This document shows, piece after piece, positions 9,828-21,237 of a DNA stretch of 64,000 bases; the stretch's first letter is position 1; the number at the start of each line of letters is the position of its first letter. Made by a program: the position numbers and the translations under genes. Location of the stretch: NCBI GenBank assembly GCA_964547015.1, contig CAZJKT010000003.1, positions 1,154 through 65,153 of the forward strand, given 5' to 3'. The notes under the pieces are model-generated. The model was given only the letters and a program-made list of their open reading frames with translations, had not been told where the DNA came from and did not search any database. Origin of the DNA: an uncultured archaeon. Its GTDB lineage: Archaea; Aenigmatarchaeota; Aenigmatarchaeia; QMZS01.

Positions 9828-10090
9828 GGGCCCGTGGCTCAGCTTGGATAGAGCGTCTGGCTTCGGTGAAGGCTTTTATTTCCCAAAAGAAAAGCTTTCA
9901 GCTAAAAGAAAGGGAGATTCGTCGCTTCGCGACCTATAACTTTCTAAGGCTTTGAAGAAACCAGAAGGTCAGCGGTTCGAATGAAGCCTTTTCTTGCAAG
10001 AAAAGTCCTCAACGCAAAAAGAAGCAGATTCGTCGCTTCGCGACTAATACTACTGCTGATTTGGCTAAATCGAGAATCCGCTCGGGCCCA
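9828..10090 (+). tRNA. tRNA-Arg (anticodon UCG) interrupted by two introns. Exons 9828-9866, 9960-9982 and 10078-10090; introns 9867-9959 (canonical 37/38) and 9983-10077 (T-loop, about 59/60).
   Basis: Manual fold. Acceptor GGGCCCG/CGGGCCC with discriminator A; D-stem GCTC/GAGC; anticodon stem TCTGG/CCAGA with loop CTTCGGA; T-stem AGCGG/CCGCT with T-loop TTCGAAT. The spliced product is 75 nt. No CCA is encoded. Each intron boundary shows a gaat duplication consistent with BHB ambiguity. Confidence 0.75.
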
Positions 10091-10133
10091 TGTTTTTGCT
10101 TAGGGATATTAATCATTTTGCCCGAATTCCATT

Positions 10134-10409
10134 ATGGCAACTGACAAGCAAATCGAAAAGCTTATTGCGGAATACCAAGAATATGCCAAAAAGGAGGGAT
10201 TTAAACTGAACCCCAACGAAGCTGTCGTGAGGGGGGTGGTCAAAAGGATGCTCGACATCGAGGAGAAAAACGGGGAGAGGTACTGCCCGTGCCGACGGCA
10301 GACAGGAAACGCCGAGGAAGACAAGCAAATTATCTGCCCGTGCACCCACCACAAGGACGAGGTCGAGAAGGACGGCCACTGCCATTGCTTTTTGTTTGTA
10401 AAAGGCTGA
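10134..10409 (+). CDS. Ferredoxin:thioredoxin reductase catalytic-subunit-like protein (FTR-like)
   Basis: CPCR...CPC...HCHC spacing (RYCPCRRQTGNAEEDKQIICPCTHHKDEVEKDGHCHCFLF) matches the Fe-S/redox-active disulfide motif of FTR catalytic subunits. Confidence 0.7.
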   Translation: MATDKQIEKLIAEYQEYAKKEGFKLNPNEAVVRGVVKRMLDIEEKNGERYCPCRRQTGNAEEDKQIICPCTHHKDEVEKDGHCHCFLFVKG

Positions 10410-10411
10410 TT

Positions 10412-11614
10412 ATGACCTATACCCCACCCCAAAAAATCCTTGACAAATACGCGGATTTACTGGTAAATTTTGCGCTCTGGAAGGGAAAGGGCGTAAAAAA
10501 GGGAGAAATTGTCCTTCTGCAAGTCCCGGAATGCGCAAAGCCACTCCTTGTGAGCCTGCACCGTGCGGTCCTGAAGGCAGGGGCCCACCCTATAATCCAG
10601 TTTCTGCCCGACGGCATTATGAAAGACTTCTTTGAGATTTCGACAGAAGAGCAGGCAAAATTCTTTCCGATGAAATATATGGGGTGCCGGGTGGACACCA
10701 TCGACCATTTTATCTCCATATTTGCTGCCGCCGACCCGTTTGAGCTTTCAAAGGCCGACCCGAAAAAGATAATGGGCCGCCAGATTGCCGGAAAGCCATA
10801 TACTGACGCAATTGACAAAAAAGAGAGGAAAAATAAAATGTCCCACACCCTTGCAATGTACGGGACAGAATCTATGGCAAAGGAGGCAAATCTCTCGCCC
10901 AAGGCCTACTGGGACCAGATTATAAGGGCCTGCTACCTGAGGGAAGCCGACCCGAAAGCGAGGTGGAGGGAAATCCAAAAGGAAATCTTTCGCCTAAGGG
11001 ACAGGCTCAACGCCCTCAAAATCGAAAATGTCCATATCAAGGCGCAGGGGACCGACCTGACACTTGGAATCGGAAAAAACAGGCAATGGGTTGGAGGCCC
11101 CGGCTACAACCTGCCCAGCTTTGAGGTTTATATCTCGCCTGATTGCAGGATTGCCGACGGGCATGTCAGCTTTAACCGCCCGCTCTACAGGTACGGGAAT
11201 ATGATAACCGGAATCCGCCTTGAATTAAAGGGTGGAAGAATTGTAAAGGCAACAGCCAAAAAAGGGCAGAAGCTGCTAAAAGAGCTTATCGCAACACAAG
11301 GGGCAGACCGCCTGGGCGAGTTTTCCCTGACCGACGGGCGCCTCTCACCAATCACGAAATTCATGGCGGACACGCTTTATGATGAGAATGCGGGCGGGAA
11401 ATTTGGGAATATGCATATCGCTATAGGCAAGGCGATTAAGGATACTTACCCCGGCGACCCCGAAAAGGTCCCTAAAGCAAATTGGGCGAAGATGGGCTAT
11501 AATGATTCGGCAATCCATGCGGATATTGTAAATACCGAGAGAAAAACAGTTACTGCCACCTTAGAGGGCGGCTCAAAGAAGGTAATTTATAAGGACGGGC
11601 GGTTTTTGGTATAG
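10412..11614 (+). CDS. Aminopeptidase, M29 (AmpS/aminopeptidase T) family
   Basis: Overall similarity to the thermophilic aminopeptidase family. I chose the start at MTYTPPQKILDKYADLLVNFAL (ATG 10412), directly after the FTR-like stop; the longer ORF from 10289 overlaps the upstream gene. Confidence 0.7.
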   Translation: MTYTPPQKILDKYADLLVNFALWKGKGVKKGEIVLLQVPECAKPLLVSLHRAVLKAGAHPIIQFLPDGIMKDFFEISTEEQAKFFPMKYMGCRVDTIDHFISIFAAADPFELSKADPKKIMGRQIAGKPYTDAIDKKERKNKMSHTLAMYGTESMAKEANLSPKAYWDQIIRACYLREADPKARWREIQKEIFRLRDRLNALKIENVHIKAQGTDLTLGIGKNRQWVGGPGYNLPSFEVYISPDCRIADGHVSFNRPLYRYGNMITGIRLELKGGRIVKATAKKGQKLLKELIATQGADRLGEFSLTDGRLSPITKFMADTLYDENAGGKFGNMHIAIGKAIKDTYPGDPEKVPKANWAKMGYNDSAIHADIVNTERKTVTATLEGGSKKVIYKDGRFLV

Positions 11615-11626
11615 GGGTTAAATCCC

Positions 11627-19502: not shown

Positions 19503-19802
19503 AAATTCTTTCGCAAATTTATAAATACCATTTAGAAATTAATACTCACAAAAACGATTTGAATATTCCATAAGACAAGCCTTATGTAGATCACCCTCAT
19601 ATAGGTCAGTATCTGAATAATTGATGATTATATCTCTCTCAATTCCACCCCTTGCACAACCCTTATATTATACCCTTGCTTTTTAAAATACTTAATTGCC
19701 CTACCAAAGCTGGCCGCATCATCCATAAATGAAAGCACATCCCGTCTGGTTTCCGGAGCCATATTATTAAACGAAATTTTGAAATATAAATCCAATTAAC
19801 TT

Positions 19803-20573
19803 ATGCCCTCCGGACTCATTATTTTGGATAAGCCCTCCGGCCCGACAAGCTTTGACTGCGTCGAGCGGGTGGGAAAAATTTTCGGAGAGAAAAAGTGCGG
19901 CCACACCGGCACCCTTGACCCAAAGGTCACGGGCGTCCTCCTAGTTTTGGTCGGCGAGGCAAGAAAGCTTGCTCCGCTGTTTGAAGACGCTGACAAGACC
20001 TACACGGGCGTAATGCATATGCACGACAATACAACCACAGAGCAATTACGGGCGATTATCAACGATTTTACGGGCGAAATCACCCAGCTTCCGCCGCGGC
20101 GCTCAAGGGTCAAGAGAGTCGAGCGGCAGAGAACGGTTTTTGGGATGACAATCGACAAGGTTGAGGGGCAGGACATCACCATGACCATAAAGTGCGAGAG
20201 AGGGACATATATCCGAAAGCTCTTCCACGACATGGGCGAAAAATTAGGAACAGGCGCGCACATGAAATACCTGCGGCGAATCGAGGTAGAGGGGTTCACA
20301 GAAAAGGAGGCTGTTACCTTCGAGGAACTGGAAAAATCGCCTAATAATCACCTTCTGCCAAACGAGGAGATAATTCAGCGGCTGGGGATTGCAAAGCTCC
20401 TTTTGCCCCCGTCAATGGAGAAAATCGTCGCAAACGGGATGCCAATTAACCTAAATGAGCCTGAATCGTTCAAGGAGGGGGAAAAAGTCGGGGTCTTTAT
20501 TGAGGGGAGGCTTCGCGCAATAGGGACAAAAATTGAGGGAAAAGTCAAGATTGAGCGCGGGATTCTGCCTTAA
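19803..20573 (+). CDS. cbf5: tRNA/rRNA pseudouridine synthase Cbf5 (TruB family, H/ACA RNP catalytic subunit)
   Basis: Catalytic motif GHTGTLDP and a C-terminal PUA-like region. Confidence 0.85.
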   Translation: MPSGLIILDKPSGPTSFDCVERVGKIFGEKKCGHTGTLDPKVTGVLLVLVGEARKLAPLFEDADKTYTGVMHMHDNTTTEQLRAIINDFTGEITQLPPRRSRVKRVERQRTVFGMTIDKVEGQDITMTIKCERGTYIRKLFHDMGEKLGTGAHMKYLRRIEVEGFTEKEAVTFEELEKSPNNHLLPNEEIIQRLGIAKLLLPPSMEKIVANGMPINLNEPESFKEGEKVGVFIEGRLRAIGTKIEGKVKIERGILP

Positions 20574-20648
20574 TGGGAATATTTGAGGGCAAATGAAAAT
20601 CAAAGGCATAGGACTTAAACCAGATAATATGGGAGTTATTGGGTAAGT

Positions 20649-20804
20649 TTAGAGAAGAAACCGAACAGCAATTAATCCGATGCAAATAAGAAAGCCTACC
20701 GTCAGCACAACTTCGGGGCGAAAATTTATCCCCTGCTCAATCTCATCACTATAATTTATGAGCCCTGCCGTTGTCTGCGGCATCCTTCTTTTCTCCTTTG
20801 CCAT
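20649..20804 (-). CDS. Preprotein translocase subunit Sec61beta (SecG-archaeal)
   Basis: MPQTTAGLINYSDE...PEVVLTVGFLICIGLIAVRFLL resembles archaeal Sec61beta (PMSSAGL.RYY.E plus a C-terminal TM). I placed the start at the internal Met (ATG at 20804) to clear the tRNA 3' end. Confidence 0.6.
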   Translation of the reverse strand: MAKEKRRMPQTTAGLINYSDEIEQGINFRPEVVLTVGFLICIGLIAVRFLL

Positions 20805-20827
20805 ACTATATATTACTTTTAAAATAA

Positions 20828-21237
20828 TGCAGGAGGGCGGATTTTCGATTTTAGCCAAATTAGCTGTGATATCCCGCGAAGCGGAATGGTTTTTCTTTGG
20901 GGTGTCGGACTTTCTTTTTCTAAAAGAACGTCTGACTTCGAACCGCCGAACCCACTAAGAGACTGGATTGCTCATCTCCAAAAGATTTTCTTTTGGGGGT
21001 GTCGGACCTTTTCTTCTTAAGAAAAGGGCTGACCTTGAGTCCAGCGCCTTTCTCCAGTCTTGAGTTTGGCCCCTATGCAATATCCGCCCGTTCGCGAAGC
21101 GAACGTTGTATGCGAAAATTGTTTTCTTTTGGGGTTATTAGACCTCCATCATTTGCGAAGCAAATGGTGGCGCCGTTCCCTGTGAACGCGCGTTGCATCT
21201 CGCTGATGAAGAGATGACCAGACTTGGCTACTCCTGC
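20828..21237 (-). tRNA. tRNA-Leu (anticodon CAA) with three introns, on the minus strand. Exons 21237-21215, 21050-21034, 20968-20937 (plus the T at 20841) and 20840-20828; introns about 21214-21051 (D-loop), 21033-20969 (37/38) and 20936-20842 (T-loop).
   Basis: Manual fold of the reverse complement. Acceptor GCAGGAG/CTCCTGC with discriminator A; D-arm GCC-AAGTCTGGTCA[intron]AA-GGC identical in form to the Leu-UAG gene; anticodon stem CTGGA/TCCAG with loop CTCAAGA; variable arm T-CTC-TTAGT-GGG-TTC; T-stem GGCGG/CCGCC with loop TTCGAAT. Spliced length is about 86 nt. Confidence 0.65.

Follow-up and report, generated by a model that had tools for sequence, protein, structure and literature searches.

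A modular family of predicted bulge-helix-bulge introns in three tRNA genes of an uncultured Aenigmatarchaeota archaeon

The DNA considered here, referred to as the window, is a 64-kb stretch of one genome (contig CAZJKT010000003.1) from an uncultured archaeon of the Aenigmatarchaeota (DPANN). The only tRNA genes found in it, encoding tRNA-Arg(UCG), tRNA-Leu(UAG) and tRNA-Leu(CAA), are interrupted by nine insertions that were recognised by reading the sequence: two in Arg, four in Leu(UAG) and three in Leu(CAA), for a mean of 3.0 per gene (Table 1). Eight of the nine belong, by sequence comparison, to one modular intron family, whose content has probably been copied between sites that are themselves old. 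ARAGORN calls no tRNA in the unspliced window, and Rfam reports none at the gathering threshold or at E<=1; once the nine segments are taken out, ARAGORN returns perfect cloverleafs for Arg(tcg) (75 nt), Leu(tag) (86 nt) and Leu(caa) (86 nt). The three loci are 100% identical among contigs assembled from three independent samples and are therefore not assembly artefacts. The organism is present in the samples ENA ERZ27252285, ENA ERZ27252294 and JGI 3300033171.

Public gene calls place short hypothetical open reading frames (ORFs) of 37, 49 and 82 aa over the three loci, at 9826-9939, about 16761-16910 and 21073-21321. The intron-laden genes are both missed as tRNAs and mis-annotated as proteins. 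Since all three are invisible to ARAGORN and Rfam and are overlain by spurious ORFs, the "missing tRNAs" of DPANN archaea are, at least in part, an annotation artefact. A fourth candidate, proposed by a tRNA scanner at 61885-62089, was rejected on inspection, as it resembles ordinary coding sequence. The mature tRNAs have a G+C content of 58-65%, against about 44% for the genome, and the introns are visibly A/T-rich.

Nine predicted introns and their junctions

Intron coordinates were refined from bulge-helix-bulge (BHB) geometry and from the intron-free orthologues of two relatives, L007 and L008 (L-numbers are our labels for the contigs and loci used in comparison). The motif scan required a 4-bp helix flanked by two 3-nt bulges, with the cut placed after the second bulge base, and all nine junctions carry this central helix and its bulges. 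They fall at four positions: the D-loop, 37/38, the variable loop and the T-loop, where the cut TTCGAA^T corresponds to 59/60. At six junctions (three 37/38, three T-loop) the BHB is strict, with the local tRNA stem supplying an outer helix of 5-7 bp; at the other three (two D-loop, one variable-loop) it is relaxed, the central helix and bulges being accompanied by weak outer helices. Under these cuts both tRNA-Leu species share an 86-nt layout with D loop TGGTCAAAGG and variable loop TTAGT, and that D loop matches the intron-free D loops of L007 and L008; for Leu(UAG), both loops agree in layout with intron-free orthologous segments. In local folds, seven of the nine central helices are part of the minimum free energy (MFE) structure, with p of 0.75-1.0.

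Every intron ends in 6 nt of which the first four are complementary to the exon and the other two are bulge bases. T-loop tails read CGAG-AA or CGAA-AA, the Arg anticodon-loop tail GAAG-AA, the D-loop tails CCAG-AA and CTGG-AG, and the variable-loop tail CCAC-AA. An earlier note on this DNA, made from its letters, had described a common tail ending in CGAGAAT at the 3' splice site. That description suits the three T-loop introns (ATTTGGC...CGAGAAT); in every intron the final 6 nt are set by complementarity to the local exon, which explains the tail described there.

At 47-164 nt, the introns gave no Rfam match to a group I or group II ribozyme core, even at E<=1. An identity as C/D box or H/ACA guides was also considered and rejected, with neither an Rfam match in the introns nor boxes visible by eye; hairpin 1, described below, has no internal pocket by eye, and ACA follows it in three of the eight family members.

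Table 1. Features of the window; bulges are written with ^ at the predicted cut, and p is the local-fold probability.
Feature	Positions	Strand	Length	Site	Assignment	Hairpin 1	Hairpin 2	Junction and other details
tRNA-Arg(UCG) gene	9828-10090	+	mature tRNA 75 nt		2 introns; ARAGORN on spliced sequence
Arg intron 1	9867-9959	+	93 nt	37/38	family member	9871-9896	9921-9933 (GC-UUC-GC)	strict BHB; anticodon stem 5 bp; central helix CUUC x GAAG; bulges GG^U/AA^A; inner helix 4 bp; in local MFE, p=0.78; tail CTTT-GAAG-AA
Arg intron 2	9982-10076	+	95 nt	T-loop 59/60	family member	9988-10005	10032-10044	outer helix = T stem; central helix UUCG x CGAG; bulges AA^U/AA^U; tail ATTTGGC..CGAGAA
tRNA-Leu(UAG) gene	16622-17058	+	mature tRNA 86 nt		4 introns; ARAGORN on spliced sequence
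Leu(UAG) intron 1	16644-16756	+	113 nt	D-loop (after 20a)	family member	16647-16673	16702-16718	relaxed BHB; central helix CUGG x CCAG; bulges UC^A/AA^A; local MFE p>=0.95; linker GGTCCGACAC..AAGAAAAA
Leu(UAG) intron 2	16775-16821	+	47 nt	37/38	not a family member			strict BHB; outer helix 7, inner helix 5
Leu(UAG) intron 3	16833-16928	+	96 nt	variable loop	divergent family member	16835-16862	16881-16904 (differing)	central helix GUGG x CCAC; bulges GU^A/AA^U; local MFE p=0.99; linker CGCTTAATCGAAAAGAAAG
Leu(UAG) intron 4	16950-17044	+	95 nt	T-loop 59/60	family member	16954-16977	17001-17015	outer helix = T stem; central helix UUCG x CGAG
tRNA-Leu(CAA) gene	20828-21237	-	mature tRNA 86 nt		3 introns; ARAGORN on spliced sequence
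Leu(CAA) intron 1	21052-21215	-	164 nt	D-loop	composite or partial family member		21146-21170 and 21089-21105 (GC-UUC-GC)	relaxed BHB; central helix CUGG x CUGG with two G-U pairs; local MFE p=0.87; linker GGTCTAATAACCCCAAAAGAAAAC
Leu(CAA) intron 2	20969-21033	-	65 nt	37/38	short-form family member	21007-21027	absent	strict BHB; local MFE p 0.8-0.99; linker GGTCCGACACCCCCAAAAGAAAA
Leu(CAA) intron 3	20842-20936	-	95 nt	T-loop 59/60	family member	20908-20932	20871-20887	outer helix = T stem; central helix UUCG x CGAA; tail ATTTGGC..CGAAAA
Short-form intron-module copy	22989-23051	-	63 nt	outside tRNA, from the secY stop codon (TTC TTC GAA TAG...)		23022-23045		TTCGAA^TAGAACC - hairpin 1 - GTCTCTACCCAAAAAGAAAACC - ATTTTTCGAAAA^GG
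EndA gene (tRNA-splicing endonuclease)	17672-18505	+			Pfam tRNA_int_endo_N (PF02778) and tRNA_int_endo (PF01974)
TnpA gene (IS200/IS605-type Y1 transposase)	13802-14233	+		between tRNA loci

One modular family with two hairpins

Homology among the introns was assessed by leaving out one gene at a time: profile hidden Markov models (HMMs; nhmmer) were built from the introns of two genes and run on the window for those of the third. Five introns occupying three positions were recovered strongly (E 1e-9 to 6e-4), namely the T-loop introns of Arg (2.5e-6), Leu(UAG) (1.9e-7) and Leu(CAA) (1.3e-9), the anticodon intron of Arg (5.6e-4) and the D-loop intron of Leu(UAG) (9e-5). Matches to the anticodon (0.004) and D-loop (0.05) introns of Leu(CAA) and to the variable-loop intron of Leu(UAG) (0.08) were weaker or partial. 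Over the 128 kb of strand searched, no match with E<0.01 fell outside an intron save for one element after secY. Pairwise local scores between introns reach z of 25; Leu(UAG) intron 3 attains up to 8 against other family members, and the 37/38 intron of Leu(CAA) scores 13-15 against the T-loop intron of the same gene. The 47-nt intron at 37/38 of Leu(UAG) resembles none of the others by either measure (z<1).

The earlier proposal of a single family at four positions in three genes thus stands as to homology at all four positions and is narrowed in that one of the nine introns is unrelated and the remainder form a mosaic with two linker subtypes, not a uniform set. It had also held that the other introns share parts of the architecture, a claim that fails for the Leu(UAG) anticodon intron; the variable-arm intron of the same gene does have hairpin 1 and the linker, but its second hairpin is a different one without the TTC loop.

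The family is built from four modules. Hairpin 1 pairs a T-rich 5' arm with an A-rich 3' arm over 7-14 bp. An A-rich linker follows, either GGTC(C/T)nnnACCCCAAAAGAAAA or (G)TCCTYAACGnCAAAGAAA. Hairpin 2, where present, has an invariant GC-UUC-GC top, and 3' of it lie a spacer (ATATnnn...ATTTGGC in the T-loop introns) and the site-specific tail. These modules are shared in shifting combinations. Both Arg introns start with TGAAG[G/C]C and have an identical 18-nt hairpin-2 block, GATTCGTCGCTTCGCGAC; the 37/38 and T-loop introns of Leu(CAA) share GTCAG starts and one linker; TTCC(T)GC-TTC-GC(A)GGAA is common to the D and T-loop introns of Leu(UAG) and the T-loop intron of Leu(CAA); and an ACAATTT(T)CGCATA block is found in both Leu(UAG) intron 3 and the D intron of Leu(CAA). 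The introns make up about 0.6% of the sequence searched (both strands) and hold seven of the window's 11 GCTTCGC heptamers, all seven in tRNA sense and with stems of at least 5 bp. T-run/A-run hairpins are essentially confined to the introns and the element flanking secY, with one coding match at 11999-12022. The T-runs of intron hairpins in the window are broken by a C after at most four T, an arrangement that may keep the archaeal RNA polymerase from terminating at oligo-T. No Rfam family matches the intron modules, at the gathering threshold or at E<=1.

Hairpin 1 starts 0-5 nt past the 5' cut in all family members and, in local folds, stacks directly on the 5' bulge. For these two reasons it is predicted to replace the inner BHB helix, and the earlier suggestion that the conserved hairpins present the BHB accordingly fits hairpin 1.

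Compensatory base changes, which the earlier note had named as a check, occur in both hairpins. Among 11 instances of hairpin 2 from the window, L012, L016 and L018, 94.8% of cells are paired against 60% in shuffled sets, double-change cells number 30 against 9.3, compensatory types occur at five of seven pairs, and none of 500 shuffles reaches the observed value; registers slid out of place give 35-49% pairing. In 16 loop-anchored instances of hairpin 1, 91.8% of cells are paired against 67.5%, with a covariation score of 0.68 against 0.22, and the figures for both hairpins are upper bounds, as the instances were partly picked for complementarity and are biased towards pairing. A MAFFT alignment of the hairpin-1/linker module gave no consensus pairs with RNAalifold, because the T-run/A-run stems slip out of register; as MAFFT could not register them, loop-anchored alignments and nhmmer were used in place of a covariance model. 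An independent check comes from L099, a relative with 86% EndA identity. Its orthologous Leu(UAG) T-loop intron has a near-identical hairpin 1 and linker, and its hairpin 2 differs from that of the window by two compensatory double substitutions (TTCCGC/GCGGAA to TTGTGC/GCACAA); over 211 nt of orthologous Leu(UAG) introns with their flanking exons, the two genomes share 82% identity.

Old sites, changing content and genomic context

Relatives were taken from 80 EndA-centred loci in GTDB genomes, to which a scanner for T arms and acceptor stems and a spliced aligner were applied. The same T-loop site has an insertion in about three dozen candidate tRNA genes among these loci, 17 of which were checked by spliced alignment. 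In the Leu(CAA) orthologues of L004, L005, L007-L010 and L101, the exons and most of the intron positions are preserved: L004, L005, L009 and L010 have introns in the D-loop and at 37/38 and 59/60, the D intron is missing from L007 and L008, and the 37/38 intron from L101. Exons in relatives are conserved, with compensatory changes in stems, while the introns diverge. The combination of hairpin 1 with a C/A-rich linker is also seen in relatives whose EndA identity is as low as about 61-65%, in the introns of their Asn, Phe and Leu tRNA genes. In the related-genome search that the earlier note had recommended, the family architecture recurs in T-loop and anticodon introns of the distant Aenigmatarchaeota L012, L016, L018 and L021, and GC-UUC-GC hairpins in the first three of these. 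As the Leu(CAA) sites are kept and the modules extend to distant relatives, both the intron sites and the architecture are old. The polarity of the few differences (the D intron in L007 and L008, the 37/38 intron in L101) may run in either direction, most sites being shared.

The content of the introns does not follow the sites. The T-loop intron of Leu(CAA) in the window scores z of 11-25 against paralogues in its own genome and no more than 5.5 against five of six orthologous introns, the sixth, in L009, reaching 8.6. The 37/38 and D introns of Leu(CAA) show the same excess of paralogous over orthologous similarity, and relatives have at the orthologous D site short introns of 20-32 nt, unrelated to that of the window. 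L004/L005/L010, and the T-loop introns of L007/L008, display the opposite pattern, with orthologues alike and paralogues not, as vertical descent would predict; the comparison can therefore come out either way. These results support the earlier reading of homologous introns at non-homologous sites as a signature of mobility or exchange.

Further cases point in the same direction. The 37/38 introns of L007 and L008 are mutually unrelated. In L009, the Leu(CAA) gene (4664-5067) has a 215-nt T-loop intron made of tandem repeats of its own 37/38 module (z=25), with the repeated hairpin GGAACTTTTAnAAAAGTTCC-ATCAAAA.... L098, an 81% relative, has a short Leu(CAA) T-loop intron with the linker subtype of the window and no hairpin 2, while the hairpin-2/tail block is nearly identical between the Leu(CAA) and Leu(UAG) T-loop introns of the window, so that this block was either gained in the window lineage or lost in that of L098. 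Linker subtype at the Leu(CAA) T-loop site varies between lineages, and in L099 the variable-loop and T-loop introns have an identical linker. L101 (8549-8800) keeps the D intron of L004/L005 (z 20-22) and has an empty 37/38 site; its 59/60 intron scores z<=1.2 against the 59/60 introns of L004/L005 and z=11 against the 37/38 intron of L004. Paralogue similarity, linker switching, the unrelated 37/38 introns of L007 and L008 and this apparent relocation all disagree with vertical descent of the host gene or site.

Two copies of intron modules lie outside tRNA genes. The single extragenic copy in the window starts at the secY stop codon, is detected at E=1.4e-5 to 2e-4 by nhmmer models trained on introns only, and is flanked by TTCGAA^ and TCGAAAA^ as in T-loops. 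An interpretation as a BHB intron of the secY mRNA, with ORF extension GWRFFLWDVGSVP, was rejected: SecY is complete at ...RRFFE*, judged against its orthologue in L083, and the outer helix would be 1 bp. With five consecutive T in its hairpin, this copy might act as a terminator for secY. In L101, a second copy of the T-loop-intron module sits immediately past the tRNA 3' end (z=11.5). Copies at these two flanks argue for a process at the DNA level that reaches beyond spliceable sites. A weak Rfam match to snoU25, a C/D-box snoRNA, at 23473-23578 on the minus strand (28 bits, E=0.07, well below the gathering score) lies inside the secY coding region and is probably due to chance.

A tRNA-splicing endonuclease gene, endA, lies 0.6 kb downstream of the Leu(UAG) gene, and its product is presumed from sequence to remove the introns. 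The protein, whose homologues are annotated Candidatus Aenigmarchaeota/Aenigmatarchaeota, consists of one alpha-type unit and an N-terminal extension of about 95 aa that is rich in Lys and Glu. Among solved structures it is closest to the alpha4 EndA of M. jannaschii (1a79). Compared with that enzyme, the stretch from the catalytic Tyr to the catalytic His is longer by a basic insertion of 6 residues, KLKRGP, which is conserved across 31 Aenigmatarchaeota homologues. DPANN alpha4-type EndAs with an extra loop have been associated with more disrupted tRNA genes (Kaneta et al., PMC5829648), and the KLKRGP segment may be such a broad-specificity loop. Upstream of endA in many Aenigmatarchaeota is a tRNA-Asn/tRNA-Phe pair; in L012, L016, L020, L021 and L027 (about 0.5-1 kb upstream) both genes have 59/60 introns, and in others, e.g. 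L022, L025 and L031, the pair is intron-free, which makes a natural series for dating intron gain or loss. Between the tRNA loci is the gene for an IS200/IS605-type Y1 transposase. The end of the JGI contig L002 joins position 14281 directly to about 13743, as might be expected if an element of roughly 540 bp (13743-14281) were multicopy, tandem or circular.

Origin of the family and comparison with known systems

We consider it probable that these are BHB introns at very high density, in which the sites are ancient and the modular content has been copied between them. On the structural side, a 4-nt strand of the tail would pair with four exon bases lying 2 nt upstream of the 5' cut, creating a 4-bp central helix with a 3-nt bulge at either end. 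The outer helix would come from the tRNA stem at hand (D, anticodon, variable or T), and the helix inward of the 5' bulge from hairpin 1. Both bulges would then be cut by EndA, with an RtcB-type ligase joining the exons and probably circularising the introns. On the comparative side, the sites would be inherited vertically and their content copied at the DNA level, through within-gene duplication, gene conversion or module exchange, and occasional insertion at new locations, some of them not in tRNAs. At each site it would be the terminal nucleotides alone that are kept or re-adapted, constrained because they must pair with the exon. Since the positions of insertion are old and conserved, what moves may be intron content and not new insertions. 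We infer both the copying mechanism and the role of hairpin 2.

Several observations weigh against this account. The evidence for exchange consists of modules of 26-50 nt conserved family-wide, so that selection for a consensus could explain part of it. All splice sites are predictions, and the BHB scan on its own is poorly specific in A/T-rich repeats, where it lists many decoys. The BHB at 37/38 of Leu(UAG) is absent from its local MFE fold, and MFE folds of whole precursors recover two of the nine central helices; the latter are uninformative because homologous introns cross-pair, and local folds were used instead. The covariation figures carry the selection bias described above. A metagenome-wide scan for the T-loop-intron pattern returned 14 loci, all of them chance matches.

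A bolder version of this scheme can be entertained tentatively, in which the intron is a currently active mobile or recombining element with a functional two-hairpin RNA conserved throughout the Aenigmatarchaeota. By standing in for the inner BHB helix, hairpin 1 would allow the element to be spliced at any place where the tail matches the upstream exon, hairpin 2 would bind a factor for spread or stability, and the extragenic copies would be failed insertions. If true, the movement of archaeal BHB introns would for the first time have a system in which it can be worked out.

The shared modules might instead be a functional RNA element under selection, such as a protein-binding hairpin or a stable circular small RNA, with no recent copying involved. 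Covariation in both hairpins agrees with this, as do the invariance of the GC-UUC-GC loop and its closing pairs across distant relatives and the double changes in L099 hairpin 2 between nearly identical flanks; excised archaeal tRNA introns are moreover known to persist as circular RNAs (PMC12558985). As a complete explanation we find it unlikely. Hairpin 2 is dispensable at orthologous sites, being absent from L098, L010, L005 and the anticodon intron of Leu(CAA), the modules match no Rfam family, and selection on the RNA leaves unexplained the 18-nt identical blocks of unpaired flank, the switching of linker subtypes and the extragenic copies. Functional constraint is compatible with copying between sites and may hold in addition to it, especially for hairpin 2.

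More improbable still is a small DNA transposon, resembling miniature inverted-repeat or palindrome-associated transposable elements (MITEs or PATEs) and perhaps mobilised by an IS200/IS605 Y1 enzyme, that prefers TTCGAA and is tolerated in tRNAs because it can be spliced. The T-loop-like flanks of the secY copy, the L101 copy downstream of a tRNA and the Y1 transposase gene in the window could all be accommodated by such an element, and the L002 junction would fit one that is multicopy or active. The intron termini vary by site and fit the needs of the BHB, insertion sites are conserved across species, and the extragenic copy in the window is solitary where scattered ones would be expected. 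Two scans of viral contigs gave 75 chance matches and 0 matches, respectively, none fitting the intron profiles. The end hairpins of the IS200 element (CCGACCCTTGGGTCGG, GGGGATACCCCGG) are unlike the intron hairpins by eye, and the narrower proposal that the introns are miniature derivatives of it was rejected on the dissimilarity of the Y1 flanks (13743-14281), likewise by eye, and on the one extragenic copy.

Low-complexity A/T sequence shaped by convergent BHB requirements, without common ancestry, is highly implausible: T-run/A-run stems, A-rich linkers and the failed RNAalifold consensus are what it would lead one to expect, but that failure is one of alignment register, loop-anchored counts show covariation, the leave-one-gene-out models recover introns of the third gene at E down to 1e-9 with no spurious matches, GC-containing 18-nt blocks are identical between introns, and the stemmed, sense-oriented heptamers and the T/A hairpins are concentrated there. 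Equally implausible is that the loci are decayed tRNA pseudogenes or assembly artefacts, which would account for their escape from standard tools and for the short ORFs called over them, since they splice to flawless cloverleafs, have exons under evident conservation in relatives, were assembled identically from three samples and are the sole tRNA genes found in the 64 kb.

For the gain and movement of archaeal tRNA introns, just one case has been described well, a pattern of sequence similarity in Thermoproteales. Multi-intron tRNAs in that order were reportedly described by Sugahara et al. in 2007/2008. Similar introns at different tRNA positions there have been read as transposition, according to what PMC4090602 relays of Fujishima 2010. 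The introns of the window resemble those of Thermoproteales in that introns of very similar sequence occupy different tRNAs and positions, and a gene can have several (PMC4090602, PMC8450103). They differ in their host, a DPANN archaeon and not a crenarchaeote, in an EndA that is a single alpha-type unit near the M. jannaschii alpha4 enzyme and not (alpha-beta)2, and in a covarying two-hairpin architecture found across the phylum. The load also differs. Archaeal tRNA genes have been reported with up to three introns, the highest published load is 71 introns in 46 genes, and the mean for Thermoproteales is 0.84 per gene (tRNAscan-SE 2.0, PMC8450103); with four introns in one gene and a mean of 3.0, the window exceeds the accepted limit at Leu(UAG). 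Our literature search found no paper on a four-intron archaeal tRNA gene and none on Aenigmarchaeota tRNA introns.

Other parallels are more partial. Disrupted tRNA genes are to be expected in DPANN archaea. ARMAN/Micrarchaeota and other members of the group, with EndAs of broad specificity, likewise have multiple non-canonical tRNA introns, a basic EndA insertion and tRNA sets incompletely predicted by standard tools (PMC3239211, PMC5829648); unlike that of ARMAN, the EndA here is not a three-unit epsilon2 enzyme, and the tRNA introns of Aenigmatarchaeota lie outside the analyses of those two studies. The C/D box guide in the tRNA-Trp intron of Euryarchaeota is also a structured intron that is released by EndA and circularised, as predicted here, whereas the present introns have no C/D or H/ACA boxes by eye and belong to no Rfam family. 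BHB introns in archaeal mRNA (Cbf5) and rRNA demonstrate that the same splicing motif can act outside tRNAs; in contrast to these, the copy flanking secY follows a complete ORF and has almost no outer helix.

The pattern is thus that of tRNA intron transposition known from Thermoproteales, seen in a new phylum, and the locus is an independent DPANN instance of it, supporting the view that sequence is copied or exchanged among the sites of archaeal tRNA introns. To that pattern the window adds a modular anatomy, in which a variable exon-pairing tail accompanies a conserved hairpin beside the 5' cut, and extragenic copies that point to a DNA-level process. It also adds close relatives with swapped, lost or moved intron content, through which individual events become datable and the mechanism testable.

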